Below, piece by piece: positions 3,855 through 16,962 of a stretch of DNA of 41,500 nt. The translations under genes were made by a program, and so were the position numbers. Numbering within the stretch: the first letter of the stretch is position 1; each line of letters starts with the position of its first letter. The notes below the pieces were generated by a model. The model was given only the letters and a program-made list of their open reading frames with translations. It was not told where the DNA came from and searched no databases. Source of the DNA: an uncultured Ruminococcus sp. (GTDB lineage: Bacteria > Bacillota > Clostridia > UBA1212); assembly GCA_902782645.1 (NCBI GenBank), contig CACZNV010000034.1:1-41500 (forward strand). The letters run 5' to 3'.

Positions 3855-4339
3855 CAGAGCACCTCCAATTGTATCATGTTCATAATCCTGGCGCTGCTTT
3901 TAAACATAGCTGCATAATCCTCAACAAGTCCGAAATCCATCTCGAAGGAAATCTTGCGGTAGTTACCTATGATCTCCTTATAATAGTCCATCGGTATTCT
4001 GGACTTAAGCCTCATAAGTTCAACCAGCATTCGCTCCTTATCATATATACGGATGCTGGAGTTATTGTATTGTATCTCTGTGATACCGGTGTAAATGTTA
4101 GTATAAATGTTGGTTTCAAACATTTCATCTTTCATGAAGAACTGCACGACACGTGGATCCTTTATCCTTGTATCCGTTCGTTTGGTCGCGAGATAGTAAC
4201 GGTCCGGGATTACGTCAGTCAGCGAATGGTAGTAAAATGCACTTTCTCCGGTGAAGACAGTTTTAGGGTATTTTCGCATGATTATATCTGTTTCGGAAGC
4301 ATTCCTCTTGGTAGAATGTATTCCTGATTCCGCTTTCAA
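3854..4339 (-). CDS. AbiEi-like type IV TA antitoxin (5' end possibly truncated or frameshifted)
   Basis: VFTGESAFYYHSLTDVIP and IRIYDKERMLVELMR motifs. The strong AGGAGG (4369-4374) is not spaced for the TTG start at 4339. Confidence 0.72.
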   Translation of the reverse strand: MKAESGIHSTKRNASETDIIMRKYPKTVFTGESAFYYHSLTDVIPDRYYLATKRTDTRIKDPRVVQFFMKDEMFETNIYTNIYTGITEIQYNNSSIRIYDKERMLVELMRLKSRIPMDYYKEIIGNYRKISFEMDFGLVEDYAAMFKSSARIMNMIQLEVL

Positions 4340-4388: not shown

Positions 4389-6194
4389 TTAGGGTAAATC
4401 GTCTGCTTTGAAATAAAACTTTTTAATCGTACACTCATAATCTTCATTTTCAATGAAAGGGCAATCTCCATTGTAATCAGCAGGATCAAAACGGATTCCA
4501 CCTACATACCCAAACCAATTTGTGTTGGTGCTCATGTCAATTCTATACGTATGGAACTCACCATCCGGCAATGTTTCGAATTCAACCATCCAATCATTAC
4601 GCCATATACTGCTAGCAACACTCGTAAAAAAAATCTGTGCCTTGTTACTCGTCCCTGTTATCTTCATTTCTATAAATATATTTTTAAAATGATTCGCATT
4701 TATACCGTACCCTAATTTAAACAGGTATGGATCCTCATCTGTTATAATAAAGTTTAACTCTCGGTTAATGCTTTTTGCAGATTCCATTTGGTGAACGTTG
4801 TCAAATATTTCACAGAGTTCTGGGTCATATACTGATTTTGAAACATCCTGCCCTGGGAGAGGAATAACATTTACGGTGAACTCAACAGGAGTCATTGATT
4901 GGCATTCAATTTTACGAATTATCATTGGCGGAATAGAAATGCTCTTAAGAACACGATATTGCTCTAAATCGGTTTTAATATTATAAACATATTTGTCATT
5001 CACAATCATGACAACATCATGACATGGATAATCGTCCATCCCGTTTATAAAATCTATTTTGCAAGAGTATACCTCAGGATTTACTATTATTTGTTGATCA
5101 AATTTATCATTATTATGAGTATTAGTCTCATTATCAAGTTTAATCTGATAACTGAGTATAAATTGATTATTCAGCTCTTTTTTTGAATACGTCAAAGATT
5201 TCAGCTTATACAAAATGTGGGGTAACACATCAAGTTCGACACTGTATCCATGTTCCAATGCTTTCTTTAATTTGCATCTATATTCGTCATCCTGACAAAG
5301 AACCGATGGGAAACGGCCACTTTTAGTCTGATACTTCATGTTTAACAGTCTGATTTTCTCTAAATCATCTGCAACTTTTCCAAACTTATCTATCAATTCA
5401 TGTAGCAACGGCTCAAGATTGTACTCATTTTCAATATAAAGCAATCTATCGTGTAAGTGTTTTTTATGCTTTATGAAATCATGTATAGTCTTATAGGATA
5501 AACTACATTCGGATGAATTTAGTTTATCCAGGAGCATTTGGTATATCTGAATTCCATAACAAATATTGGGATTATTATACAATTCTCCTCTAGGTGAGCT
5601 GTACCACTCGCACTCTTTTTCACAGCTGATATAATGCGATAGGTTTTTAATGAAAAGATCCGGATGGAAATCTCCTTGAAAAGAAACTTTTGGTTTAATT
5701 GTTGTAAATGTTTTATGCAAAGCATCTATACTGCCACCTTGCATATAATGATTCCTTATTTCGTACGCAGCTTTTACTAGTTCATTTGCATCAATATCAA
5801 CTATAACTTGTCCTCTCATTATATCAAAGAAAATGCTTTTAAACTTTTTTTTGTCCTTATCGTATTCATATATGATTAGTGGATGAACAAAATGATTGCT
5901 AAAATATCTTTTCGATGCTGATATGTAAAACTCATCCACCCAAAGTATTACAAATTTATCAAACATAATTTCTTGTTCTAATAATTCTTGCATATTCCTA
6001 ATGTCACCTATTTTATATTGTGCTATAGTATCAAACAGACCATAAAAATCTACATTGTCGACATAGTCAACAATGTCACCATACATCATAATATTGACAA
6101 ATCTCTCAAGAATCCATCCCTCTTGGCTAGACCGACTGAGGAACGCCAATAAAGGATTAATTTGCATGTAAGTACTCTTATTCGTATGACTCAT
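4389..6194 (-). CDS. Hypothetical protein: N-terminal BtrH-like/papain-like region plus C-terminal CBM-like beta-sandwich
   Basis: VILWVDEFYI...HFVHPLIIYEYD resembles the BtrH-like D-x-F-Y...H-x-x-x-I-Y-G-Y-D pattern. C-terminus has DPYL...AQIFF...DGEFHTYRIDMS...W-x-G...IRFDP. ORF is solid; function is tentative. Confidence 0.55.
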   Translation of the reverse strand: MSHTNKSTYMQINPLLAFLSRSSQEGWILERFVNIMMYGDIVDYVDNVDFYGLFDTIAQYKIGDIRNMQELLEQEIMFDKFVILWVDEFYISASKRYFSNHFVHPLIIYEYDKDKKKFKSIFFDIMRGQVIVDIDANELVKAAYEIRNHYMQGGSIDALHKTFTTIKPKVSFQGDFHPDLFIKNLSHYISCEKECEWYSSPRGELYNNPNICYGIQIYQMLLDKLNSSECSLSYKTIHDFIKHKKHLHDRLLYIENEYNLEPLLHELIDKFGKVADDLEKIRLLNMKYQTKSGRFPSVLCQDDEYRCKLKKALEHGYSVELDVLPHILYKLKSLTYSKKELNNQFILSYQIKLDNETNTHNNDKFDQQIIVNPEVYSCKIDFINGMDDYPCHDVVMIVNDKYVYNIKTDLEQYRVLKSISIPPMIIRKIECQSMTPVEFTVNVIPLPGQDVSKSVYDPELCEIFDNVHQMESAKSINRELNFIITDEDPYLFKLGYGINANHFKNIFIEMKITGTSNKAQIFFTSVASSIWRNDWMVEFETLPDGEFHTYRIDMSTNTNWFGYVGGIRFDPADYNGDCPFIENEDYECTIKKFYFKADDLP

Positions 6195-6353
6195 AGACGA
6201 TTTTACACCTATTAAAGATGTTTAACCTCCCTCTTCCTTATGATTACTTGACGTAGAGATTGACTGCTATCTTAGAGCTAACTTTTTATACATTCTAAAG
6301 TCCACTCGAAGACCATTGTTTTGATGATCTGGATAATTCGTCTTAGCATATTC

Positions 6354-7793
6354 TTACCCCAAAATATTTTTGTTAAGCCACTCAAGGAAAGAATCATTTT
6401 TGCCAGTCCTGCCTTGGATAATTTCAGAAATATGAGTTGTTCTCTTTAGATATTCTATCATTTGTTCTTCAACACTTCTTCCAATCACTCGACAAGAGAC
6501 CGAGAACAACATAAGAGTGTTCCCATCTACTACCATTGTTCCTATCAATCCATAATCATTAATACTATCTCGGTAGTATACAGAATAGGTTTGACCTATA
6601 CGATTTGAAAGCTCCCTTATAGTTAATCGAGATCCATTTGTCCTTTGGTTTGTCCTCATAGACAACTCTGATATCCTACTTAGTTCAAAATCCCGTGCAA
6701 TATGGATATCTACCAGACCAGCAGAATCCTTTCCATAATGCTTCATGCTTTGCATATTTCTATAGTTTGAAACCCTAATGTCTGCAAGAGCTTGCTTCTT
6801 GGGATTAAGTTTAAAGCACGATAACTGTTCGTAAATGGTGTACGAATCAAACAAAATTGACTGAACATCTGGAACTAAAGATGTCATCTCATTTATCTCA
6901 CACTCTGAATCATCAATAAACACAATACTATCCAATGAAAGATTTAAAATGGTGGAGATTTCCTGAATATTCTCTGCTTTATTCCTATAATTCGCTTTAA
7001 TAACAGAAAAAAGCTCTTCTCGTAATATCATTCCATTATGGTGGGCAAGGACATCGCGAATGCTTTTTTCGCTATTTTTTGTGCAAAGACATAGAATTGT
7101 TCCGCTATTGTACATCTGTAGAATAAACTTCTGAAAAGTTGAGTATTTTTTCGATATCATTATTCCTTCTATCCCGTTCTCATTTAAAACTCCATCCCAC
7201 AGCACTCCATCACAGTCAAGTACTATGCACTTGGGTGTTCTACAGTAAGTTACGCAGTACTGACAATAGATTTCCCTAACTATCTCCTCGATAGTTCTTT
7301 TTGAATATGGTGAACTCCAGCGATACCAGCCTTTATCATTGTAAGCGTTTTTAATCCCGATGCCAGCTATAATTCTCTTAAAATCTAGAAAAGAGTCATC
7401 TGCATCAATAATATCTGCCAGAAATAGATTCAGCTTATCCACTATACCATTGCAGGGAAGAATGTTTCCAAATATAAACCTATCCTTTCGGTTATAATCA
7501 TCAAAGCCTAGCCACATTATTTTTCCTTTACTCTTCTTTCTTACGCTGTCATATATTTCTTTGCACTTATCCATAATAATGTCAAACTGTTCCAGACTAG
7601 GATTGCCAGACAATTCTTCAAGGTTAATATGCAACAGCACCAGTTCACTCTCTACAGTGTCTACCATGCTGAGATTGTTTAGATATATAAACGTGAATTT
7701 AGATTTGTCTAAAAAATAGAATCTAAACGCATTTTTTAGATACGGTTCAAAATAGATATTGCTTATAACTGAAATACTTAACACCGCAATCAA
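6354..7793 (-). CDS. FkbH-like HAD-IIIC protein (glyceryl-ACP-forming phosphatase/transferase)
   Basis: KCIVLDCDGVLWDG (DxD), CTKN, NKAENI, VFIDDSECE, RISELSMRTNQ and SCRVIGR with the conserved Cys. ATGA-type 4-nt overlap with the ACP gene. Confidence 0.85.
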   Translation of the reverse strand: MIAVLSISVISNIYFEPYLKNAFRFYFLDKSKFTFIYLNNLSMVDTVESELVLLHINLEELSGNPSLEQFDIIMDKCKEIYDSVRKKSKGKIMWLGFDDYNRKDRFIFGNILPCNGIVDKLNLFLADIIDADDSFLDFKRIIAGIGIKNAYNDKGWYRWSSPYSKRTIEEIVREIYCQYCVTYCRTPKCIVLDCDGVLWDGVLNENGIEGIMISKKYSTFQKFILQMYNSGTILCLCTKNSEKSIRDVLAHHNGMILREELFSVIKANYRNKAENIQEISTILNLSLDSIVFIDDSECEINEMTSLVPDVQSILFDSYTIYEQLSCFKLNPKKQALADIRVSNYRNMQSMKHYGKDSAGLVDIHIARDFELSRISELSMRTNQRTNGSRLTIRELSNRIGQTYSVYYRDSINDYGLIGTMVVDGNTLMLFSVSCRVIGRSVEEQMIEYLKRTTHISEIIQGRTGKNDSFLEWLNKNILG

Positions 7794-8038
7794 TCCTCCA
7801 GTATTTCGCAGATGACTTGAATTATTTTTGATACTGATTCAAGCTCTAGAATCGACAACCTGTCATCCGGAAACTCAATATTGAAAGTCTTTTCTAGTTC
7901 AACAATTATCGCAATAAACTCAATTGAATCTACTCCTAACTCTATCAAACTATCTTCGTAATTTGATTCAGTTATAACTGCATTTTCGATGCAAGAGTTT
8001 ATTATTTCAACTACATTGATTATTGATGGTTTTTCCAT
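7790..8038 (-). CDS. Acyl carrier protein
   Basis: 82 aa, acidic. LGVDSIEFIAIIVELEKTFNIEF carries the phosphopantetheine-site Ser. Confidence 0.9.
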   Translation of the reverse strand: MEKPSIINVVEIINSCIENAVITESNYEDSLIELGVDSIEFIAIIVELEKTFNIEFPDDRLSILELESVSKIIQVICEILED

Positions 8039-8040
8039 TG

Positions 8041-8940
8041 TCAGCCTCCCATGAAGATTTGTTTGTTTAGTTGTATCTTTCTTCTATCCCTTTCCGTCAA
8101 ATACCCTTCTATGTAATCATTTAAATCATTTGATTCAAGTCTTGTCCTAAAGTCTACTGTCCATTCTTTTCGTTCTTTTTTGCAGAGGCCGTAAGCATTA
8201 AGCAGTTTTTCTCCTTCTGGCGTGCGAAATGCTTCCAAATACTCCAATAAAAAAGAATCGCCAAATATTTGTTTTGTATAAAAAAGAACATAAAAAACAT
8301 AAGGTATAATTTCGTATTCCTTACTGATTCTAAGCAAGTTTTGCACTGAAATATCCTCTATGTTGTTTTTTAGCAAGAAATAGATATCTTTAAACATTTC
8401 AGATCTAATTGTATTTCTTGTTGCAAGAAGAAATATACTGTTCATGTCCTTGTAATGGTGTAACACCAATTGCACCATCGCTTTTAAAGGCGGCAATGTT
8501 TTAACTTTTGTACCATATATGTCCATCTCTATAGCATCAGCCAAGAACTGCTCCATATTTATTTTTTTCCCTTCGTATTCTCCCCAAAAAATATCAAAAT
8601 TGACATCTATCACAATGGATTGATTCCCGATAGTTCTAACATATGGAATGATCTGGTGCGAAGAAGACAAACATAGAATTCGCTCCAGCCGATAATCCTT
8701 CATTGAACTAGGTCTACTATGAAAACCCATTTGTAGCAAATGATTCTCAAGGTCGCCTAAAAACGCTTTTGGCACAAGCAGATCAATATCATTGTATCTT
8801 CTTTCACTCTCATTGCCATAGCATTGTTTGGATAATGCAGCTCCCTTTACAAGAGAATATGGCATGTTCCTAATCTTTGAAAAAAAATCCAAATGATTCA
8901 GAAATGCAAAGACGGCTCCGTTACGTACTTCTTCTAACAC
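8041..8940 (-). CDS. Nucleotidyltransferase family protein (NTP_transf_5-like)
   Basis: LVKGAALS...Y...RRYNDIDLLV and later LVLHHYK. GGAGG RBS lies in the upstream gene end before GTG. Confidence 0.85.
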   Translation of the reverse strand: MLEEVRNGAVFAFLNHLDFFSKIRNMPYSLVKGAALSKQCYGNESERRYNDIDLLVPKAFLGDLENHLLQMGFHSRPSSMKDYRLERILCLSSSHQIIPYVRTIGNQSIVIDVNFDIFWGEYEGKKINMEQFLADAIEMDIYGTKVKTLPPLKAMVQLVLHHYKDMNSIFLLATRNTIRSEMFKDIYFLLKNNIEDISVQNLLRISKEYEIIPYVFYVLFYTKQIFGDSFLLEYLEAFRTPEGEKLLNAYGLCKKERKEWTVDFRTRLESNDLNDYIEGYLTERDRRKIQLNKQIFMGG

Positions 8941-8944
8941 TTTT

Positions 8945-9811
8945 CTAACCTCCTAATACTAAAGATTCTATGTCGTTTTTAACTTTTTTTAATGTTTCAA
9001 AATTGCTTGGTATATGCAGGAAGGAAACTGGAATATCCGAAAACAGAGATTCCATATCGATCCTTTTTATAATACTGTAAGGTAAAACACCAATCCCAAC
9101 TATGTTGTGATAGAGCATGCCTTTCTTTATTGCAGGGAGTTTGATTGGCTCTACCCATGGTTTGTTGTCGCTTGTTCTTCTAAGGAAAATAATACTTTCA
9201 ATCCTAGAAGGCTTTATTTTTGTATCATCAATACTATAATATCGTTTTCCGATAATATTCCGTTCCTTATTTACGTCAAATATATTAAGTTCAGAGACTG
9301 ACTGGTCCGTCAGTTTCATCAAATTATGCGCCCTAAACGGACGAGTTTTGGATCTTATCAACAGAGTATCATCGGAATACAATTTGAGTTGGTCTCCAGC
9401 TAAAAGATATGAAAGCGTGGTTTTTCCAACTCCCTTATCTCCTGAAATGCATATCACAGTTTTTTCCCGTAATAATGAACATGCATGAAATAAGCACCAC
9501 CCCTTACTCGCAAAGAATAAAGAGAATGGTATGTTAAAGAGTGTAGAAAAGAAAGACTCAAAAGAAGTTGCAAGACATCTTATCCTGTTGTCTTTCCCAT
9601 CTACATAATAGATTGCATAATCTCCTAATTTTATGATAAATGTATTATTATCTAGTTCTTCAACTGATATACCCTGGCAAGTGACTTTTCCTATTTCAAC
9701 ATGAAGATTCATAAAAAATGATTCGTTCGTATCCGTAGAAGAAAACTCACTTAAAAGCGGCATTTTTATATTTGAATATACAATTATTCCGTATATCTTA
9801 TAAATCCACAT
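8945..9811 (-). CDS. HPr-kinase-like P-loop kinase (lasso-peptide-kinase type)
   Basis: LFHACS...ISGDKGVGKTTL (Walker A)...YSDD, with N-terminal YKIYGI. No DRTGG-type HprK N-domain. Confidence 0.8.
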   Translation of the reverse strand: MWIYKIYGIIVYSNIKMPLLSEFSSTDTNESFFMNLHVEIGKVTCQGISVEELDNNTFIIKLGDYAIYYVDGKDNRIRCLATSFESFFSTLFNIPFSLFFASKGWCLFHACSLLREKTVICISGDKGVGKTTLSYLLAGDQLKLYSDDTLLIRSKTRPFRAHNLMKLTDQSVSELNIFDVNKERNIIGKRYYSIDDTKIKPSRIESIIFLRRTSDNKPWVEPIKLPAIKKGMLYHNIVGIGVLPYSIIKRIDMESLFSDIPVSFLHIPSNFETLKKVKNDIESLVLGG

Positions 9812-9828
9812 ATTCTTGACTGAAACGT

Positions 9829-11625
9829 TTATTGCACGTAGTGCTTCGCCTGTGCATGATACATTTTTGAATAGTTGTCGCAGCTCGCAAGCAGCTCGTC
9901 ATGTGAGCCGACTGCCTCCACGGTGTGGTTGTGGAGAAAAATAACGCTGTCTGCGTACTTGGCGACAGAAAGCCTGTGAGAGATGTAGAAAATCGTTTTT
10001 CCTTTGAGCGTCCTGTTGAATGTCTGTATCAGTTCGTCTTCGGCAAATGCATCCAGCGCCGACGAAGGCTCGTCAAGGATTACTATCGGCTGATCCTTAA
10101 ACAACACCCTGGCAAGGGCAAGTTTCTGAAGTTCGCCGCCGGAAAGGAGCACGCCGTTCTCGTCAAATATCCTGCCAAGCTTTGTGTCAATTCCGTTAGG
10201 CAGTCCGTCGATTTTTTCCTTCAGACCTGCATTGCACAAAGCATCATATATTTTGGCACGTACCTCCTCAGTGTCCCTGTAGTCATTCATCGCAACGTTT
10301 TCTGCAATAGACAGCGCGTAATACTTGTAGTCCTGAAAGACAATGCCTATCCGGTTTCTGTAGCTTCTGTAGTCAATTGACCGCAGGTCCACACCGTTGT
10401 ACATAATGCTGCCGTCGTTTACGTCATAGAGGCGGCAGATAAGCTTGCAAAGTGTGGTTTTTCCTTCGCCGTTTTCACCTACAATAACGTAAAATTTATT
10501 CTTCTCGATTTCAAGATTCACATTGCTCAGGACGTAGTTTTCACTGCCCGGATACTTGAAGCAGGCCTTGTCGAGCCTGTAGATATTAGCGGTTTCCGGA
10601 ATCTCATCGGCATTGCAGCCCTTGCCGTCAACCGCAATAGTATTCTCAGTCTCCATAAGCTCCCTGAAGGCTTCGATGTAAATCGAATTCTCGGCAAGGG
10701 TAATTATGTTGCCCGCAATTCCCGTCACCTGGGAGGAGAAAGTCGTCAGGGCAGTCAGAACCATTGTAAAGTCCGCCACGCTGAGGCCGAAAAAGACCAT
10801 GCGTATCGCAAGGAAAACGTAGTACAAGCCAAGTTCAATCGTGCCTATCGCATGCCTGATCGATCCGTTGGCTGTCGTTTTGTTGAGCAGGCGCCTTCCC
10901 AGCTTCTGAGACTTGTCAACGGTCTTTTTATACTTGGCGATAACCCAGTCCGAGATGGAATACATGCGCATGTCATTGGCGTAGTTTTCATCCACAAGCA
11001 TGGTCATGTAGTACGAAATCTCCCGGTTCACTTCCGTCAGTTCAAGCCTGTTCCTGTACTGTGCGCGCTTGTCAAGGCAAATCGTAATGATTTTCGTCAC
11101 CGTCAGCACCGCCATGACAACATAAACCCACTTGGAAACGATTGACAGGACCACGCCAAGGGACACAATCGAAACACCCGACGAAATAGCCGCAAAAGTC
11201 GCATCAAGAAATCCTGTCGCCACATTACTCTGCACCGCCTGCGTCGCCAATTCTTTGGTCTTAAGCGTTTTCGGGGAAAACAAAACCGCATAGTCAAGAG
11301 TCACAATTTTTGCCTGTATATCGAACAAAAGCGCATTTCTGTACAAATCGCCAATGATTCCAATCTTCCTGTTGAGCAGCAGCACAGCCTGCCCTTTCAC
11401 GTAGGAGGCCCCCACGATAATCAGTATTATCATCAGCGCCCCGTCCCAGCTCTTACCCAGCAGCTGCTCAATCAGCAGCTTTGAAAACAGGGCATTGAGC
11501 GCCGGCATAACACCATTTAGTAAAGCAATTAAAAACCTGCAAATAAAAAACATTTTGCTGAATTTCCATGCTTTTTTTATCATAAAAAGCTGATTACTCA
11601 TCAGTCCTTTAAATTTTAGTTTCAT
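9829..11625 (-). CDS. ABC exporter, fused permease/ATPase
   Basis: N-terminal TM helices, GENGEGKTT, Q-loop VFQD, LSGGELQK, IVILDEP, ISHRL. No N-terminal C39 peptidase domain. Confidence 0.93.
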   Translation of the reverse strand: MKLKFKGLMSNQLFMIKKAWKFSKMFFICRFLIALLNGVMPALNALFSKLLIEQLLGKSWDGALMIILIIVGASYVKGQAVLLLNRKIGIIGDLYRNALLFDIQAKIVTLDYAVLFSPKTLKTKELATQAVQSNVATGFLDATFAAISSGVSIVSLGVVLSIVSKWVYVVMAVLTVTKIITICLDKRAQYRNRLELTEVNREISYYMTMLVDENYANDMRMYSISDWVIAKYKKTVDKSQKLGRRLLNKTTANGSIRHAIGTIELGLYYVFLAIRMVFFGLSVADFTMVLTALTTFSSQVTGIAGNIITLAENSIYIEAFRELMETENTIAVDGKGCNADEIPETANIYRLDKACFKYPGSENYVLSNVNLEIEKNKFYVIVGENGEGKTTLCKLICRLYDVNDGSIMYNGVDLRSIDYRSYRNRIGIVFQDYKYYALSIAENVAMNDYRDTEEVRAKIYDALCNAGLKEKIDGLPNGIDTKLGRIFDENGVLLSGGELQKLALARVLFKDQPIVILDEPSSALDAFAEDELIQTFNRTLKGKTIFYISHRLSVAKYADSVIFLHNHTVEAVGSHDELLASCDNYSKMYHAQAKHYVQ

Positions 11626-11660
11626 AAGGTAATCGCTCCCATCATAACTGCTTCAGTGTT

Positions 11661-11687
11661 GCAAGGCAGGATTTTGTCCTGCCCCGC
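11661..11687 (-). terminator. Stem-loop after the precursor gene (attenuator/mRNA stabiliser, no U-tract)
   Basis: Minus strand GCGGGGCAGGA-CAAAA-TCCTGCCTTGC, an 11-bp stem with two G-U pairs, 10 nt after the stop codon. Confidence 0.6.
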
Positions 11688-11697
11688 TTTTCAAGAA

Positions 11698-11832
11698 TTA
11701 GCTTGTTGCTATGCAATTGTTGCAACCAACATTAATCTCCGGGCATCCAGCGTTTGGACAGACTTGTGGGCATACGCAATCACATCCTAGGCCAAGACCA
11801 AGTGGCTCTAATCCTGCTTGAATAATTTCCAT
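11698..11832 (-). CDS. Cys-rich RiPP precursor peptide (44 aa)
   Basis: Not in the ORF track. MEIIQAGLEPLGLGLGCDCVCPQVCPNAGCPEINVGCNNCIATS*. Strong RBS GAAAGGAG upstream of the ATG, 7 Cys, located between the rSAM and ABC genes. Confidence 0.88.
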   Translation of the reverse strand: MEIIQAGLEPLGLGLGCDCVCPQVCPNAGCPEINVGCNNCIATS

Positions 11833-11877
11833 TTTTTCTTCTCCTTTCACTATATTTGTTGAAATACGAATGTCAAG

Positions 11878-13200
11878 TCAATAATACTTCTTTATCATCT
11901 CCTCTATTTCGCATTTCACAACATCTAAATCACAGTCCATTTCTCCATATGCCATTCTAGCTTTAGGACATCTTTTTCCGAAACACAAAGGAAGAGCACT
12001 ACATTTTTTGCACTTGTTTGAAGACAAATAATCCGAATATACCCATTTGGAGTATAACGATTCGTTTATTTCAACGGTACCATCGTCTTCTATCCTTCCC
12101 AGATTATTTGTTTCATTGTCAAGATCAAACGAGCACTTTAACAAATATCCCTGATCGTCAAACACAAAGTAATTAGGTTTTGAAGCATAACAAACCCTGC
12201 TACACGGGAGGCTACGGCTAGTGACATTATTGCAAGATAATGCATATTCTTTAAGCATTCCCACAATTTCAACATTAATGAATAGTGATTCAATCTCACC
12301 TAAAAGTTGAGGAGTTTCACTATTTCCCTGATCCTTGATAGTCTCAAAGTATATGCCGATACGTTTGTCGTTTAGCTTTTCTGAAACATATTTATAAAAT
12401 TCCTGCAAACTATCCGCAACATCAAAATTAAAGTTAGTTCGAAGTGCTACCTTAAAGAGAGCAGTAGTTGTAACCATGTAACTTAGATTATTGATAATGG
12501 TCTGCCACGTAGGCTGCCCTCCCACAAGAGGCCTTGTTTTGTCATGTGTATAGCTCATTCCATCTACGGATATTTGATAAAATGAGCAATTCAGTGAAAC
12601 TAACTTGTCAAAATGATTAGGAGTTAACAGATAACCATTGGTTGACATTCCAGATTCCATATGTATGCCGGGAAAATCGGTATCTAGCATCGACTTTAGT
12701 TTTTCTAAAAACCATATTATATTATTATACTCTACGAGAGGTTCTCCACCAAAAAAAGTAACTCTGACATTTGAATAACCTCTCAGCAGCAATTGGTTTC
12801 GTACGAATGCGATGACGGAATCATAAGTCTCCTTTTCCATTTTACGATCCAAGTGAGGCTGACCACAGTACACACATCTAAAATTGCATTGCCGCGTAAC
12901 TATTAACATTATGTCGAGTGTGCTGTTTCGAATAACCCCTTCCTCATATAAGCACCTAACTAATAAATCCTCATCCGCATCAACATCTACAAATAACTTT
13001 TTATTGTAGAGAACAGATATAATATCATTTTTCTCATCAAATTCGATTTCTGGCTGAGACAATAATTGATTCAATCGATCAATATAGGTAATTTCCCGAA
13101 AAGCAATTATTGCCCCACTAAGAGAGCTATAAGCTATAACTGATCCATCGTCCTTGTTGATAAAGAAAGCATATCTGCTTCGCTTAAGTTTTTTACTCAT
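11878..13200 (-). CDS. Radical SAM/SPASM peptide maturase
   Basis: CNFRCVYC, FFGGEP, STNG, QISVDG. SPASM pattern C-x13-G-x4-C...C-x2-C-x5-C-x4-C-x11-C. About 90-aa N-terminal extension (possible RRE). Start set at ATG 13200 after AGAGG. Confidence 0.92.
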   Translation of the reverse strand: MSKKLKRSRYAFFINKDDGSVIAYSSLSGAIIAFREITYIDRLNQLLSQPEIEFDEKNDIISVLYNKKLFVDVDADEDLLVRCLYEEGVIRNSTLDIMLIVTRQCNFRCVYCGQPHLDRKMEKETYDSVIAFVRNQLLLRGYSNVRVTFFGGEPLVEYNNIIWFLEKLKSMLDTDFPGIHMESGMSTNGYLLTPNHFDKLVSLNCSFYQISVDGMSYTHDKTRPLVGGQPTWQTIINNLSYMVTTTALFKVALRTNFNFDVADSLQEFYKYVSEKLNDKRIGIYFETIKDQGNSETPQLLGEIESLFINVEIVGMLKEYALSCNNVTSRSLPCSRVCYASKPNYFVFDDQGYLLKCSFDLDNETNNLGRIEDDGTVEINESLYSKWVYSDYLSSNKCKKCSALPLCFGKRCPKARMAYGEMDCDLDVVKCEIEEMIKKYY

Positions 13201-13715
13201 AATAAGCCTCTTTCTAAATTCGTACTCGATTTTAATCAAAACGGAACAATCTGTTGAATAAATGTGTATAAAAAGGAGTCTTTTACGCACATTCATTCAA
13301 ACCATCTCTTTCAGGAAACAGGTATTCAATCAAAATAAGCCATATGCTTACAATGAGAGAATAAACTCAAGTAGTGAAACCCTCGTGTGCTAATCACAGC
13401 CTACATGAAATGAGCCGAGAAAGATGTTGTTAGATACACCTCATACCATTACATGCTCATTTCTCATTTGAACAACACACCCCGTCCTTAATACAACTCA
13501 ACTGTAATAGCAGAATAATCATGGCATCGAATTGTTCAATGTCTTAAATATACTCTGTTTACACGCCTTGCTATAATCTACTACATTTCGAGAAAGAATC
13601 TAATACAGAAACAACTTAAACCCAATGACGACGCTTAAAAGTGAAAAACATTGAACTATATGCTTCTGTATTAATTGCCAGCGTTAGTGGCAAGCATCCC
13701 CTTCTGTCATGAACC

Positions 13716-13745
13716 ATTATACAGCTGTTCAATATCTGTTGTCAA
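13716..13745 (-). promoter_or_regulatory. Putative sigma-A promoter facing the biosynthetic cluster
   Basis: Minus strand TTGACA-18 nt-TATAAT. Confidence 0.6.
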
Positions 13746-14022
13746 GTATTATTTTTAATAAAAACCGTGTGAAATTTGACTGTATTTCAGTATTTTGTAA
13801 GTTTTTGTTGAATTATTAACAGATCATCTTGTGGTCATTCCCAGTTTATGATAAATACGTTTTATCGACTGTTGCATACATCTGTCGACATCTTCTAAAT
13901 AATTAAAGCCTCTCTGCAGCGCTTTGCATTAATTCACCTCTCAATGAATCCTTCTCTTTAAATACAATTTATACAAGCGTGATTCATGGCCTTTAATGCA
14001 AAAACTTAAAACTGAGCGTTTT

Positions 14023-14808
14023 TTAACCCAGGGCTACGTCCAGGGCCATCATAAGTGTAAAGCCTAATGCGAACATCACAACGCCTGAGTGCGCATGCTC
14101 GCCCGAAGACATCTCCGGAATCAGTTCCTCCACAACGACATACATCATTGCGCCTGCGGCAAATGAAAGCAGGTAAGGCATTGCCGGCACCACAAGGCCC
14201 GCAAAAACCACCGTTAGAGCTGCCGCAACCGGTTCAACAACGCCTGAAAGCACACCGTCAAGGAACGCCCGGCCCTTGGTCTTGCCCTCTGCGTGGAGGG
14301 GCATGGAGATGATGGCACCCTCGGGAAAGTTTTGAATTGCGATACCGATTGCAAGCGCCAATGCACCGCTCATGGTTATATTGGCGGAGTGGGAGAGAAC
14401 GCCCGCATAAACAACACCCACAGCCATGCCCTCAGGGATGTTGTGCAGCGTGACCGCAAGCACCATCATTGTTGTCCTTTTGACTTTGCTTCTCGGACCC
14501 TCGGCCTTGTCGGCAAACATGTGCAGGTGAGGCACCACATTGTCAAGCAGCAGCAGGAAAAGTATCCCGAGCCAGAAGCCAATGAAGGCGGGGGCAAAGG
14601 CCCATTTTTCCATTGGCGATTCCTCCTGCTCTATCGCCGGTATGATCAGGCTCCAGATGGATGCAGCGACCATCACCCCCGCCGCAAAACCCGTCAAGGC
14701 CTTTTGAACTTTTTCGTTTAGTTTTTTTCTCATGAAGAACACGCAGGCCGAACCCAGCGCTGTTCCCGCAAACGGAATCCCTATTCCCAATATAACTTCC
14801 GGCAGCAT
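14023..14808 (-). CDS. ZIP family metal transporter (ZupT/GufA-like), copy 1
   Basis: GFAAGVMVAASIWSL, HNIPEG, QNFPEG, EELIPE. ATG 14808 follows AGGAGGTG. Confidence 0.93.
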   Translation of the reverse strand: MLPEVILGIGIPFAGTALGSACVFFMRKKLNEKVQKALTGFAAGVMVAASIWSLIIPAIEQEESPMEKWAFAPAFIGFWLGILFLLLLDNVVPHLHMFADKAEGPRSKVKRTTMMVLAVTLHNIPEGMAVGVVYAGVLSHSANITMSGALALAIGIAIQNFPEGAIISMPLHAEGKTKGRAFLDGVLSGVVEPVAAALTVVFAGLVVPAMPYLLSFAAGAMMYVVVEELIPEMSSGEHAHSGVVMFALGFTLMMALDVALG

Positions 14809-14831
14809 AAGGCACCTCCTCAGCAGGCTTT

Positions 14832-14877
14832 TGTTAGCCTGCGCTAACATACTATATCGGAAACAGCCGCTTGTCAA
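14832..14877 (-). promoter_or_regulatory. Promoter with DtxR/MntR-like operator palindrome
   Basis: TTGACA-17 nt-TAGTAT running into TGTTAGC-GCAG-GCTAACA (14832-14849), a TTAG-N6-CTAA core upstream of a metal transporter. Confidence 0.65.
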
Positions 14878-15006
14878 TCGCCAAATGCCTTTTTTAAGGG
14901 AAAAAGTTAAAAAATCGGTAACTTGTTTGCTGCCGCCAATGAAATCCGCAACTTGCTTATAATCAAAAATGATTTCGCATCTTGACGAAATCATTTTCAA
15001 AGTTCT

Positions 15007-15321
15007 TCATGCGGTTACAATCACGCCGGATTTTTCAGGAAATGAAGGATCTTTTTGCGTCATCGTGAGCAATCGGCAGGCTGTGCCCTCCGGGTGATTT
15101 CTTCCGGACTCCCATGCTTCCACCGTTTTAGGAGAAACACCCATATATTTTGCGAAGAGCACCTGTGTCAACCCGGTTGCAAGGCGAATACTCTTTATAT
15201 CCTCTGCGGTGAAAGACTCCAACGGCTGAATTGAAAGAACCGTGACCTTTGCTTTTCCACGGCCTTTTTCATAGTCGATTGCCTGGTTCAACCCAGTTTT
15301 CAAATCTTCAAACAAACTCAT
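15007..15321 (-). CDS. HigA-type XRE antitoxin
   Basis: MSLFEDLKTGLNQAI N-terminus and HTH LTQVLFAKYMGVSPKTVEAWESGR. ATGA overlap with the toxin gene. Confidence 0.87.
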   Translation of the reverse strand: MSLFEDLKTGLNQAIDYEKGRGKAKVTVLSIQPLESFTAEDIKSIRLATGLTQVLFAKYMGVSPKTVEAWESGRNHPEGTACRLLTMTQKDPSFPEKSGVIVTA

Positions 15322-15680
15322 CTTTTTTCTCCTTTCCGTGCATTCTCGTACAGTTGGGCCTCTAATTCCATAATCAACCCCCGAAGTTCGTTGCACTCTT
15401 CATCAGATAAGTTTTCTTTTTCATTCTTAGCATATGCGGTCAATAAATAGATTATCTCAAAAACCTCAAAATCCACGTATACAACACGCACACTTCCGCT
15501 TTTTCCTCGCCGTTCAAATGCAAAACGCATTTTCCGTATTCCACCGGTTTTCCGCATCACTGCACCGGTTTTCGGATTAATCACCAATTCTTCCTGAAGT
15601 CTGCGCAAATCGTCGTCTGTGAATCCAAGTCGTTTCCATTTTGAACTGAATTGAGGGAGTTCAATAAATGTTCTTGTCAT
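15318..15680 (-). CDS. RelE/HigB-family toxin
   Basis: FIELPQF...GAVMRKTGGIRKMRF...GKSGSVRVVY...YLLTAYAKNEKENLS. Toxin-first gene order. RBS AAGGAG. Confidence 0.9.
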   Translation of the reverse strand: MTRTFIELPQFSSKWKRLGFTDDDLRRLQEELVINPKTGAVMRKTGGIRKMRFAFERRGKSGSVRVVYVDFEVFEIIYLLTAYAKNEKENLSDEECNELRGLIMELEAQLYENARKGEKR

Positions 15681-15702
15681 AATAAACTCCTTTTTCTTTT
15701 TC

Positions 15703-15731
15703 ATTTTACCCTATTAAATAGGGTTTGTCAA
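15703..15731 (-). promoter_or_regulatory. TA operon promoter with operator palindrome
   Basis: TTGACA-17 nt-TAAAAT. ACCCTATT-a-AATAGGGT (15708-15724) lies in the spacer. Confidence 0.8.
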
Positions 15732-15792
15732 CGCTCTTTTGAAGAAAAAGGAGATTATTCTTTTCGGGTCAAACTGTCTCAGCCTCTTTGTC

Positions 15793-16070
15793 AGACACCT
15801 TGTGTGCTTTCAGAACTATCGTTGGTTGTTATAGTTCTTTTCGCGACCTGCGTAAAGAGCCAAAACGAGCATTAAACAAAAAACGCTCAGTTTTGAGCTA
15901 TTTTTTCGCGTACGGACCCGATGATGTACGAAGGTACTTCGAGCGGTCCGTACACGAAAAGCAGGTCGCGAGTTAATTGTCGTAAGACACCTTGTGTGCT
16001 TTCAGAACTATCGTTGGTTGTTATAGTTCTTTTCGCAACTTGCGTAAAGAGCCAAAACTGAGCGTTTTTT
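15793..16070. repeat. 74-bp direct repeat pair and MITE-like unit with 18-bp terminal inverted repeats
   Basis: 15793-15866 matches 15985-16058 at 72 of 74 positions. AAAAAACGCTCAGTTTTG (15878-15895) / CAAAACTGAGCGTTTTTT (16053-16070). Internal hairpin CGTACGGACC...GGTCCGTAC. Confidence 0.8.
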
Positions 16071-16860
16071 ACCCTAAAGCGACGTCTAAGGCCATCATCA
16101 GTGTAAACCCAAAGGCGAACATCAGCACGCCTACATTGGAGTGTTCGCCCGCGGACATTTCAGGTATAAGCTCCTCGACAACCGCGTAGAGCATTGCGCC
16201 TGCGGCAAAAGCCAGAAGGTAAGGCATTGCCGGGACCGCCAGCCAGGCGAAAAGGACAGTGAAGAGTGCGGCCACAGGTTCGACGGCGCCGGAAAGGAAA
16301 CCGTCGAAGAAGGCCCTGCCCTTGCTCTTGCCCTCTGCGTGGAGTGGCATGGAGATGATGGCGCCCTCGGGGAAGTTCTGGAGGGCCATACCGATTGAGA
16401 GTGCCAGTGCGGCGCCAAAGGATATGCCGGTGCCGGAGACCAGGCCTGCGTAGACGACGCCAATGGTCATGCCCTCAGGGATGTTGTGGATCGTCACGGC
16501 GAGGAGAAGCATTGTCTCTCGCTTGGCGCGGCTTTTGAGACCCTCGGCCTCTTCGGCGAAGCGGTGGAGGTGAGGGATGATCTTGTCGAGAACGAGAAGG
16601 AAAATAATACCGACCCAGAAGCCTATAAATGCGGGGATAAATGAAAGTTTGCCCTTAAAATAGGAGGGAACCATGTTTTCGCTCATGGCGGGGATCAAAA
16701 GACTCCAGATTGAGGCGGCAACCATGACGCCTGCGGCAAATCCGGTGAGCGCCCGCTGTACGGAGCGGCTCAGATCTCTTTTCATTAAGAAAACGCATGC
16801 GGAACCGAGGGTGGTTCCAACGAGAGGGATGGCAATTCCGAGCAGAACATTAAGCCACAT
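16069..16860 (-). CDS. ZIP family metal transporter (ZupT/GufA-like), copy 2
   Basis: Same motifs as copy 1 (HNIPEG, QNFPEG, identical C-terminus GFTLMMALDVALG). ATG 16860 follows AGGAG. Confidence 0.93.
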   Translation of the reverse strand: MWLNVLLGIAIPLVGTTLGSACVFLMKRDLSRSVQRALTGFAAGVMVAASIWSLLIPAMSENMVPSYFKGKLSFIPAFIGFWVGIIFLLVLDKIIPHLHRFAEEAEGLKSRAKRETMLLLAVTIHNIPEGMTIGVVYAGLVSGTGISFGAALALSIGMALQNFPEGAIISMPLHAEGKSKGRAFFDGFLSGAVEPVAALFTVLFAWLAVPAMPYLLAFAAGAMLYAVVEELIPEMSAGEHSNVGVLMFAFGFTLMMALDVALG

Positions 16861-16962
16861 ATGGAGTCTCCTGTTTGGGTTTTGTATTGGCGGCAAGGGG
16901 TAAAACTTGCCCTTCAAGTTTTTACTATTTGAAAGGTTTTTTGTCAATAGGCGCCTTACACC

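Follow-up and report, generated by a model that had tools for sequence, protein, structure and literature searches.

What becomes of a short, Cys-rich peptide that ends in Ser and is encoded next to a radical S-adenosylmethionine (SAM) enzyme? The question is raised by a 44-codon gene in a 41,500-nucleotide stretch of DNA from an uncultured cattle-gut Ruminococcus sp. (contig CACZNV010000034.1 of assembly GCA_902782645.1, positions 1 to 41,500), referred to below as the window. The conserved core of the locus consists of the radical SAM gene, the precursor peptide gene, an ATP-binding cassette (ABC) exporter gene and the gene for a distant HprK-like kinase. By analogy with characterized systems, our best reading is a radical SAM Cys-rich peptide made on ribosomes and modified after translation (RiPP) that follows the C-terminal Ser tailoring logic of certain lasso peptides, with an acyl carrier protein (ACP) and an FkbH-type enzyme in addition. 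It is very likely that the peptide is a real precursor on which the adjacent radical SAM enzyme acts. A RiPP with thioether bridges, which receives a phosphate on its C-terminal Ser and further decoration on that, is a reasonably probable product, all of whose chemistry we infer.

The precursor peptide and its radical SAM enzyme

The open reading frame (ORF) lies on the minus strand (ATG at 11832-11830, TAA at 11700-11698) and its product is MEIIQAGLEPLGLGLGCDCVCPQVCPNAGCPEINVGCNNCIATS, 44 residues long with Ser as the final residue. Its seven Cys residues occupy positions 17, 19, 21, 25, 30, 37 and 40, with spacings of 2, 2, 4, 5, 7 and 3, and three Cys-Pro pairs are present. Residues 1-16 contain no Cys and terminate in LGLGLG. 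A preliminary description of this DNA had claimed an unannotated ORF with this length, Cys count, leader, Cys-Pro content and final Ser, together with a strong ribosome-binding site and a downstream stem-loop, and all of these features were recovered (Table 1). The exact peptide is absent from a collection of 15 billion proteins in which the radical SAM enzyme and the kinase of the same contig are present; gene callers therefore missed the ORF here. It occurs as a single copy in the host genome, at 11698-11832 only, and is confirmed as a real gene. A longer frame starting with GTG (11850) is unsupported, because every relative starts at the Met of MEII/MEVK. The stem-loop at 11687-11661 contains two G-U pairs and has a folding energy of -23.1 kcal/mol (z = -3.7), with 1 of 200 shuffled sequences folding equally well. 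It has no U tract, the terminator scan made no call there, and it is possibly a hairpin that stabilizes or attenuates the transcript.

A word-index search with the window peptide returned no candidate. The genome designated G164 carries a 41-residue ORF, MDVKQNGANYEERGLGFGCNCVCPELLCTQIGCPTINPGCS, directly after a radical SAM gene whose product is 55% identical to that of the window, and the two peptides are themselves 55% identical. The profile built from these two sequences retrieved nine relatives (E-values of 7.7e-17 to 3.1e-5) among 1,835,955,588 representative proteins, all nine being 39-50 residues long with a layout identical to that of the window peptide. Six further cluster members were examined, giving 15 database peptides and 17 family sequences overall. 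In an alignment of 11 sequences, M1, G7, G12, C17, C19, C21, C30 and C37 are invariant and Q5, G14, C25 and N34 nearly so; an N-x-x-C motif, read by eye, is present in 9 of the 11 peptides. All 17 sequences end in Ser despite differing tails (..GCS, ..SKCS and ..NNCIATS), the ending being Cys-Ser in 8 of the 11 aligned members and Ala-Thr-Ser in the window. Individual members carry 6, 7 or 8 Cys residues, and the earlier argument that an odd Cys count speaks against a purely disulfide-bonded product consequently carries little weight. No NCBIfam or Pfam model matches any family member; no precursor model was found for the 11 peptides at E-values up to 10, and the window peptide matched no NCBIfam family at E-values up to 1. 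The family is recurrent in gut metagenome assemblies, where one member was found on 42 contigs.

Contigs from runs X2 and X5, which belong to two other cattle-gut studies, cover the peptide gene and carry the same variant of it. This allele contains 10 substitutions and three 1-base insertions, all within 11711-11776 in the core-coding part. Just one further difference is found in the surrounding 300 bases, and a difference at 11873 falls inside the -35 box of the promoter-like site at 11849..11876. When the differences were applied to the window sequence and translated, the frame was kept and no change fell in the leader. The core of the allele differs by V20G, P22V, A28V and I41T and by the exchange of Q23 and V24 for Q-A-G (one residue more), while all seven Cys residues, N34-x-x-C37 and the final Ser are retained. 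RiPP precursors usually show this combination of a conserved leader and a variable core that spares Cys.

The radical SAM enzyme is assigned a start at 13200, which fits its relatives (~440 residues) and the database copy P0004. It matches Pfam Radical_SAM at 63 bits (cut-off 29.5) and the NCBIfam SPASM domain TIGR04085 at 39.3 bits (cut-off 27), and both the CxxxCxxC motif (C105, C109 and C112) and seven C-terminal Cys residues are invariant across 35 sequences. The best full-length models are CefB (156.4 bits; cut-off 600), TIGR04463 (151), Clo7bot (129) and geopeptide (127), with lower scores for PapB NF047865 (95 bits of 340), the SCIFF maturase TIGR03974 (51.9 of 425) and the sactipeptide model RumMC (52.2 of 720). 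The best models (CefB, TIGR04463 'C-rich', Clo7bot, PapB and CcpM) all describe maturases of Cys-rich peptides. Among solved structures, the nearest relative is 5wgg (E = 3e-22), the thioether-forming enzyme CteB.

The enzyme has about 35 relatives with identities of 50-61%; with identities down to 29% the number rises to about 120, almost all of them metagenomic proteins. The close family was rare in the genomes sampled. Besides the window's own genome, it was found in none of the 45 others of the host-order sample, in 2 of 398 other genomes of the class sample and in 1 of 301 genomes of the family of G164; 6 of 401 genomes of the order of G164 contained it at an E-value of 1e-50. A scan of genome contigs with the single radical SAM sequence gave one irrelevant locus at 26% identity, a scan of metagenome contigs with generic radical SAM motif patterns gave 80 loci, all at most 37% identical (L009 alone was of later use), and a plasmid search with the enzyme gave nothing above 33% identity.

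The preliminary description had named the peptide as the substrate of this enzyme, and the idea gains support from neighboring genes, leader conservation (M1, G7 and G12, with Q5 nearly invariant) and co-folding. At every well-covered locus that was readable, Cys-rich small ORFs, homologous or analogous to the window peptide, lie beside the radical SAM homologue. G766 and G741, with radical SAM enzymes 45% identical, each have a radical SAM gene, two Cys-rich precursor genes, an ABC gene and a kinase-like gene, and other Cys-rich small ORFs adjoin the more distant relatives (28-39%). For 4 of the 15 database peptides, the longest contig has exactly the same size as that of a radical SAM homologue (9713, 3966, 62876 and 16071), which is circumstantial evidence that they share contigs. 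Co-folding of the radical SAM alignment with the peptide alignment gave a score of 0.72 (runs of 0.75, 0.72 and 0.69), against 0.08 for the best of three controls, a mark that 58 of 80 solved complexes and 2 of 110 mismatched pairs attain. The runs share at least 33% of contacts, with a predicted local distance difference test (pLDDT) value of 37-48 for the partner. The confident contacts place leader residues 1-8 on residues 28-36, 39 and 59-67 of the enzyme, and core residues 33-37 (I-N-V-G-C) come near its residues 186-413.

The final serine and a distant HprK-like kinase

The final Ser was in the title of the preliminary description and went unused there. It is the most informative residue of the peptide, being invariant and tied to a kinase gene. 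The kinase-like protein encoded two genes downstream of the precursor matches NCBIfam HprK-related kinase B at 19.3 bits and A at 16.4 bits. Among 29 members of its family, 19 match kinase A and 17 match kinase B, all below threshold (best E-value 8.5e-7), and four match Pfam Hpr_kinase_C. Residues H109, GxxGxGK(S/T) at 124-132 and D147-D148 are invariant in the family. The AlphaFold2 model has a pLDDT of 94 and its nearest PDB folds are phosphoenolpyruvate (PEP) carboxykinases (E = 4e-8; template modeling (TM) score ~0.5), a fold class that also includes HprK. Database relatives number 42 including the protein itself, all without names, and 6 of the 41 non-self homologues have a longest contig of the same size as that of a radical SAM homologue. 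A plasmid search with the kinase gave no match, and a canonical HPr(Ser) kinase (family TIGR00679) was not found in the host genome G000 (96% complete).

A profile of the kinase family was run on all loci of the analysis, and radical SAM loci with a kinase match of at least 60 bits were counted. There are eight such loci: the window, G164, G766:C13, G741, G100, L009, G736 and G766:C22. Their candidate precursors end in Ser in 11 of 12 cases, those of G766, G741, G736, L009 and L110 including Cys-Ser endings, whereas none of the six precursors from the kinase-less loci G323, G1017 and G842 (~19-20 kb each) does so; their last residues are Ala, Asn, Glu, Leu and, in two cases, Cys. The final Ser thus goes together with the kinase gene in a suggestive manner.

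The tally excludes Cys-filtered ORFs that lie inside long genes or have no relative, among them a 32-residue TTG-started ORF ending in Cys (L110), a 43-residue Arg-rich ORF ending in Ala (L100) and, from L103, a locus without the kinase, a hydrophobic 47-residue ORF with a final Ser. Also outside it are L006 and L007, which have too little flank; their candidate precursors end in Pro and Gly and they have no kinase match. The kinase-profile scan of the class sample gave weak matches in G104 (51 bits) and G225 (45.5 bits), at loci that have no radical SAM homologue. The former lies among polysaccharide genes together with an NTP_transf_5 gene, and the latter is accompanied by a small ORF resembling PqqD and by a candidate peptide with Phe as its last residue. 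Neither of these, nor L025 (26 bits), was counted.

With regard to the paired precursor genes, G741 (L099 4528-4695) has CAA where G766 (L098 4749-4886) has TAA after the homologous Ser. The second tandem precursor of G741 lacks an ATG, GTG or TTG start and would need ATT or ATA.

The putative tailoring cassette, the proposed pathway and its rivals

On the minus strand, the row of genes runs from the radical SAM gene through the peptide, the ABC exporter, the P-loop protein, the NTP_transf_5 nucleotidyltransferase, the ACP and the FkbH-type enzyme to a 601-residue protein (Table 1). The FkbH family loads a glycolysis-derived C3 unit onto ACP. Kinase, NTP_transf_5, ACP and FkbH genes occur together in the window, in G100 (L110) and in L009, and in the latter two they accompany other Ser-ended precursors. 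The nucleotidyltransferase is 60% identical to that of L110, 59% to that of L009 (same place) and 45% to those of Clostridium perfringens plasmids; the corresponding values for the FkbH-type enzyme are 48%, 36% and 35%. That the nucleotidyltransferases of L110 and L009 are 59-60% identical to that of the window, though the radical SAM enzymes are only 28% identical, suggests a cassette-like movement of the tailoring genes. The cassette is also found in a different radical SAM/PqqD cluster on 56-kb C. perfringens plasmids, where the kinase-profile match is weak (31.6 bits) and an unannotated 41-residue Ser-ended ORF lies just before it. G164 combines the kinase and NTP_transf_5 with a family-2 glycosyltransferase, and its exporter, at the same place, is 48% identical to that of the window. 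The kinase-only loci G766:C13, G741, G736 and G766:C22 gave no tblastn match to the window nucleotidyltransferase in the stretches covered.

We propose the following pathway. The conserved leader (M-E/D-V/I-x-Q-x-G ... G-L-G-x-G) would dock on the N-terminal recognition domain of the radical SAM enzyme encoded upstream, as the co-fold models predict, and the enzyme would turn several core Cys thiols into intramolecular thioether bridges. The nearest models of the enzyme and the fact that Cys residues are the sole invariant residues of the core point to such bridges, which we consider somewhat probable; the strongest candidate among bridging sites is the N-x-x-C motif, nearly invariant and placed ahead of the tail. 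The HprK-like kinase would then O-phosphorylate the invariant Ser44. Ser invariance, co-occurrence with the kinase gene and the lasso precedent argue for this step, and it probably takes place. The phosphate would be decorated further by the NTP_transf_5 nucleotidyltransferase with the ACP/FkbH pair, a step suggested by the recurrence of the cassette and advanced tentatively, with somewhat less than even confidence. The ABC transporter would presumably export the product.

A wider reading joins these elements, and we hold it to be doubtful as a whole. The kinase, NTP_transf_5, ACP, FkbH and BtrH-like genes would form a portable 'Ser-tail cassette' that needs little beyond a free C-terminal Ser and moves between unrelated RiPP classes (lasso peptides and at least three kinds of radical SAM peptide). 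In the window locus, the Ser phosphate, activated by the nucleotidyltransferase, would be joined to a C3 glyceryl unit brought on the ACP by FkbH. This would give a peptide with thioether bridges whose C-terminus bears a phospho-glyceryl group, a tail that would be new among RiPPs.

Several points weigh against the pathway proposed here. The evidence comes from sequences and models. The radical SAM enzyme falls far short of all curated cut-offs (156 bits of 600 at best), which bars the transfer of any reaction to it by homology, and radical SAM/SPASM enzymes make C-C and ether links too. The co-folding result may reflect memory or likeness, since maturase-leader complexes have already been solved (closest 5wgg), and the modeled fold of the peptide itself is uncertain. 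The kinase assignment is distant: its score against HprK-related kinase B compares with a cut-off of 200 bits, its PDB sequence matches cover the Walker A region only, HprK itself (3tqf) is matched at an E-value of 0.13, and the best folds are PEP carboxykinases and not HprK. The exception to the final Ser, the first G741 peptide, extends 10 residues beyond the homologous Ser. Candidate precursors were chosen by eye from Cys-filtered ORFs (intergenic, beside the radical SAM gene, or with relatives), and because the loci are also kin, the split between kinase-bearing and kinase-less loci is suggestive and does not amount to a statistical test. No leader peptidase is evident.

Among the alternatives, the enzyme could perform chemistry other than thioether formation, such as a C-C or ether cross-link or epimerization, with the Cys residues serving as disulfides or metal ligands. 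Its failure to reach any curated cut-off fits this view, as does the chemical diversity of SPASM enzymes described in a review, and two ZIP-type metal transporter genes lie just upstream. Each of the best-scoring models, however, describes a maturase of Cys-rich peptides, 5wgg, the nearest solved relative, is a thioether-forming enzyme, and no core residue other than Cys is invariant. The ZIP genes lie outside the low-GC island and none stands beside the G164 copy on the readable side; a metallothionein-like reading prompted by these genes was rejected on the same grounds. We regard non-thioether chemistry as unlikely. The pathway could also diverge at its other end, on the same precursor and radical SAM enzyme, if the phosphate placed on the final Ser were a leaving group. 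Class II-IV lanthipeptide synthetases use phosphorylation in this way. Elimination would leave a C-terminal dehydroalanine, which would take up a neighboring Cys or hydrolyze to a C-terminal amide. The Cys-Ser endings of most aligned members and of the precursors of G766, G741, G736, L009 and L110 are in keeping with such a route, and so are the minimal clusters of G766 and G741, which have a kinase and no nucleotidyltransferase. Yet none of the loci showed a lyase-like gene, the Ala-Thr-Ser tail of the window offers no adjacent Cys, the characterized lasso precedent retains the phosphate and builds on it, and the nucleotidyltransferase, ACP and FkbH genes would be left without a substrate. 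Elimination is accordingly judged distinctly unlikely.

A more radical doubt is whether the ORF is a chance frame, or an unmodified Cys-rich peptide unrelated to its neighbors. It is short and of low complexity, is known from DNA alone and is missing from the gene calls of the host genome. Against this stand relatives down to an E-value of 7.7e-17 in 1.84 billion proteins, a conserved position beside radical SAM homologues, an in-frame allele that keeps every Cys, a ribosome-binding site and a single genomic copy at exactly this place. This explanation is very improbable.

If the proposed pathway is true, phosphorylation of a C-terminal Ser with subsequent additions would be a transferable module that also serves radical SAM peptides of gut anaerobes, and would no longer be peculiar to a small number of lasso peptides. 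The pathway would supply a mining rule for missed precursors (a Ser-ended small ORF beside an HprK-like kinase gene), possibly new phosphodiester chemistry by way of the ACP and FkbH genes, and enzymes that perhaps tag peptide C-termini largely regardless of sequence, as a review reports for the paeninodin kinase.

Comparison with known systems and further features of the locus

The nearest counterparts of the tailoring genes are those of the lasso peptides paeninodin and pseudomycoidin. As described in two papers (PMC6993621, PMC8498205), HprK-like kinases phosphorylate the C-terminal Ser of both precursors, the paeninodin kinase has little regard for the remainder of the peptide, a lasso-peptide kinase with D158A/D159A is inactive, and PsmN, an 'uncharacterised nucleotidyltransferase', is needed for adding one or two hexoses to the phosphate. 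Judging from that description, PsmN would belong to PF14907. The lasso clusters and those described here both have a Ser-ended precursor, a kinase gene (HprK-like, by a distant and putative assignment in our case) and, in some clusters, a nucleotidyltransferase of this sort, and kinase-only and kinase-plus-nucleotidyltransferase versions both exist, as they do here. The scaffold enzyme, in contrast, is a radical SAM/SPASM protein in our locus. No lasso cyclase or B1/B2 leader protease was found among the genes from 4389 to 13296; the product is therefore not a lasso peptide, and the tailoring logic alone is held in common. The kinase of the window is distant from HprK-related models and is likened to PadeK/PsmK by description only, and the ACP and FkbH genes have no mention for lasso clusters in the parts of PMC6993621 and PMC8498205 that were accessible.

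In the ranthipeptide systems (PapB/freyrasin, CteB/thermocellin-SCIFF and NxxcB), too, the gene of a radical SAM/SPASM enzyme adjoins that of a short precursor whose core is rich in Cys, and an exporter gene follows. Their maturases have an N-terminal leader-binding domain, and the PapB and SCIFF-maturase models are among the matches of our enzyme. The N-x-x-C motif recalls the substrate of NxxcB, which makes an Asn beta-thioether (PMC9389541). The maturase of the window is nonetheless far under the PapB and SCIFF-maturase cut-offs (95/340 and 52/425 bits), its precursor family has a C-D/N-C-x-C pattern with G-C-P units after it, and the invariant final Ser and kinase-based tailoring genes were not found described for ranthipeptides in the literature searched. 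The maturases of the CefB, TIGR04463, Clo7bot and geopeptide systems also act on small Cys-rich peptides and give the best full-length models, but the window enzyme attains no more than between a quarter and a third of the cut-off scores, and the Cys residues of the window peptide do not recur at every fifth position as in CefA/CefB. Membership in the SCIFF, CefB, TIGR04463 and PapB families was rejected on the maturase scores, and identity with the SCIFF precursor was rejected as well, the curated SCIFF peptide model being unmatched.

The GeoRSP and SynChlorMet cassettes are other radical SAM systems that hold HprK-related kinases. HprK-related kinase B and ScmC of SynChlorMet are among the weak family matches of our kinase, far below cut-off, which hints at a wider, purely bioinformatic link between HprK-related kinases and radical SAM/SPASM systems. 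Full-text searches that combined radical SAM RiPPs with HPr kinase or HprK brought up mentions of lasso peptides only, subscription journals being outside their scope, and the main text of a 2023 compendium of radical SAM RiPP enzymes contains no 'kinase', 'phosph' or 'nucleotidyl'. The family may be listed elsewhere, for example in supplementary files or subscription journals.

Table 1. Coordinates of the genes and signals of the peptide locus in the window
Feature	Position	Strand	Remarks
Precursor peptide gene, 44 aa	11698..11832	(-)	Leader ~1-16, Cys-rich core 17-44, C-terminal Ser44
Ribosome-binding site AAAGGAG	11841..11847	(-)	8 nt ahead of ATG
Stem-loop, 11-bp stem	11661..11687	(-)	Starts 10 nt past precursor stop; between precursor and exporter genes
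Promoter-like TTGACA-16-TATAGT, 11/12 consensus	11849..11876	(-)	Between radical SAM stop and peptide ribosome-binding site
Radical SAM/SPASM peptide maturase, 440 aa	11878..13200	(-)	Starts at Met33 of a 472-aa frame opening at 13296
Promoter-like TTGACA-18-TATAAT, 12/12	13716..13745	(-)	Upstream of radical SAM gene; consensus match only
ABC exporter, 598 aa, fused permease and ATPase	9829..11625	(-)	Without N-terminal peptidase domain
Distant HprK-like P-loop kinase, 288 aa	8945..9811	(-)	Proposed kinase for C-terminal Ser; two genes downstream of precursor
NTP_transf_5 nucleotidyltransferase, 299 aa	8041..8940	(-)	Pfam PF14907, 74.3 bits (cut-off 31.2)
Acyl carrier protein, 82 aa	7790..8038	(-)	Pfam PP-binding, 39.7 bits
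FkbH-type HAD-IIIC enzyme, 479 aa	6354..7793	(-)	NCBIfam FkbH domain, 157 bits (cut-off 146.65)
601-aa protein	4389..6194	(-)	N-terminal ~330 residues like BtrH_N / peptidase-C39-like proteins

The function of the promoter-like site at 11849..11876 is doubtful, because the end of its -10 box lies 2 nt ahead of the Shine-Dalgarno sequence. The site at 13716..13745 is a candidate for the operon promoter. In the region as a whole, 12 promoter-like sites were found, compared with 9.6 +/- 2.6 in shuffled sequences.

The 601-residue protein matches Pfam BtrH_N below cut-off (E = 0.0012), and structure matches of its N-terminal part in the Atlas lead to clusters bearing BtrH_N (TM ~0.8). The ORFs after the FkbH gene in the plasmid (E = 1e-5) and G100 and the N-terminal third of this protein are weakly alike; a tblastn search with the protein itself matched none of the other loci. 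Its possible roles include those of an acyl-ACP transferase and of a leader peptidase, and its place in the pathway is uncertain.

The row of genes is mostly 31-37% G+C and its flanks are ~50%. Within this island, the segment 9800-12000, which holds the ABC gene and the peptide gene, is 44-48% G+C, and the low-GC island may be a mosaic. Just outside it, at 14023-16947, two ZIP/ZupT-type paralogues (325 and 292 residues) flank a RelE-like and helix-turn-helix (NadS/MqsA-like) pair.

The plasmid cluster examined (L104; NZ_CP148674.1 7212-26072) is RiPP-like, with the 41-residue Ser-ended ORF at 4211-4336 of the locus. Its order is radical SAM, signal peptidase I, PqqD-fusion, second radical SAM, 41-residue ORF, weak HprK-like protein, two ABC genes, NTP_transf_5, VOC protein, ACP, FkbH-type HAD-IIIC enzyme and hypothetical protein. 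The nucleotidyltransferase has a match in 13 C. perfringens plasmid records, the gene order being taken from NZ_CP148674.1 only. In L110 (G100:C5:66000-85999), an IS110-family transposase gene (14774-15691) lies between two Ser-ended precursor genes and the radical SAM gene.

A cousin cluster is found in L089 (G323:C28:131000-150000, ~11330-15490), where a radical SAM gene, with a product 39% identical to that of the window, is followed by three small ORFs that consist mainly of Cys-Gly repeats. Their N-termini resemble the window leader (MEIVR, VDIIRD and MEILRD) and they have no final Ser. The cluster includes an ABC exporter and has no HprK-like kinase gene. A homologue of AgrB and a LytTR/histidine-kinase pair lie beside it and hint at a signaling role, for this cluster only.

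Elsewhere in the window, the segment 24142-32020 encodes two very large proteins (1959 and 656 residues) with an N-terminal prepilin-type methylation motif. The larger contains five Listeria-Bacteroides repeats, and a 712-residue Cthe_2159-type carbohydrate-binding protein adjoins the pair.

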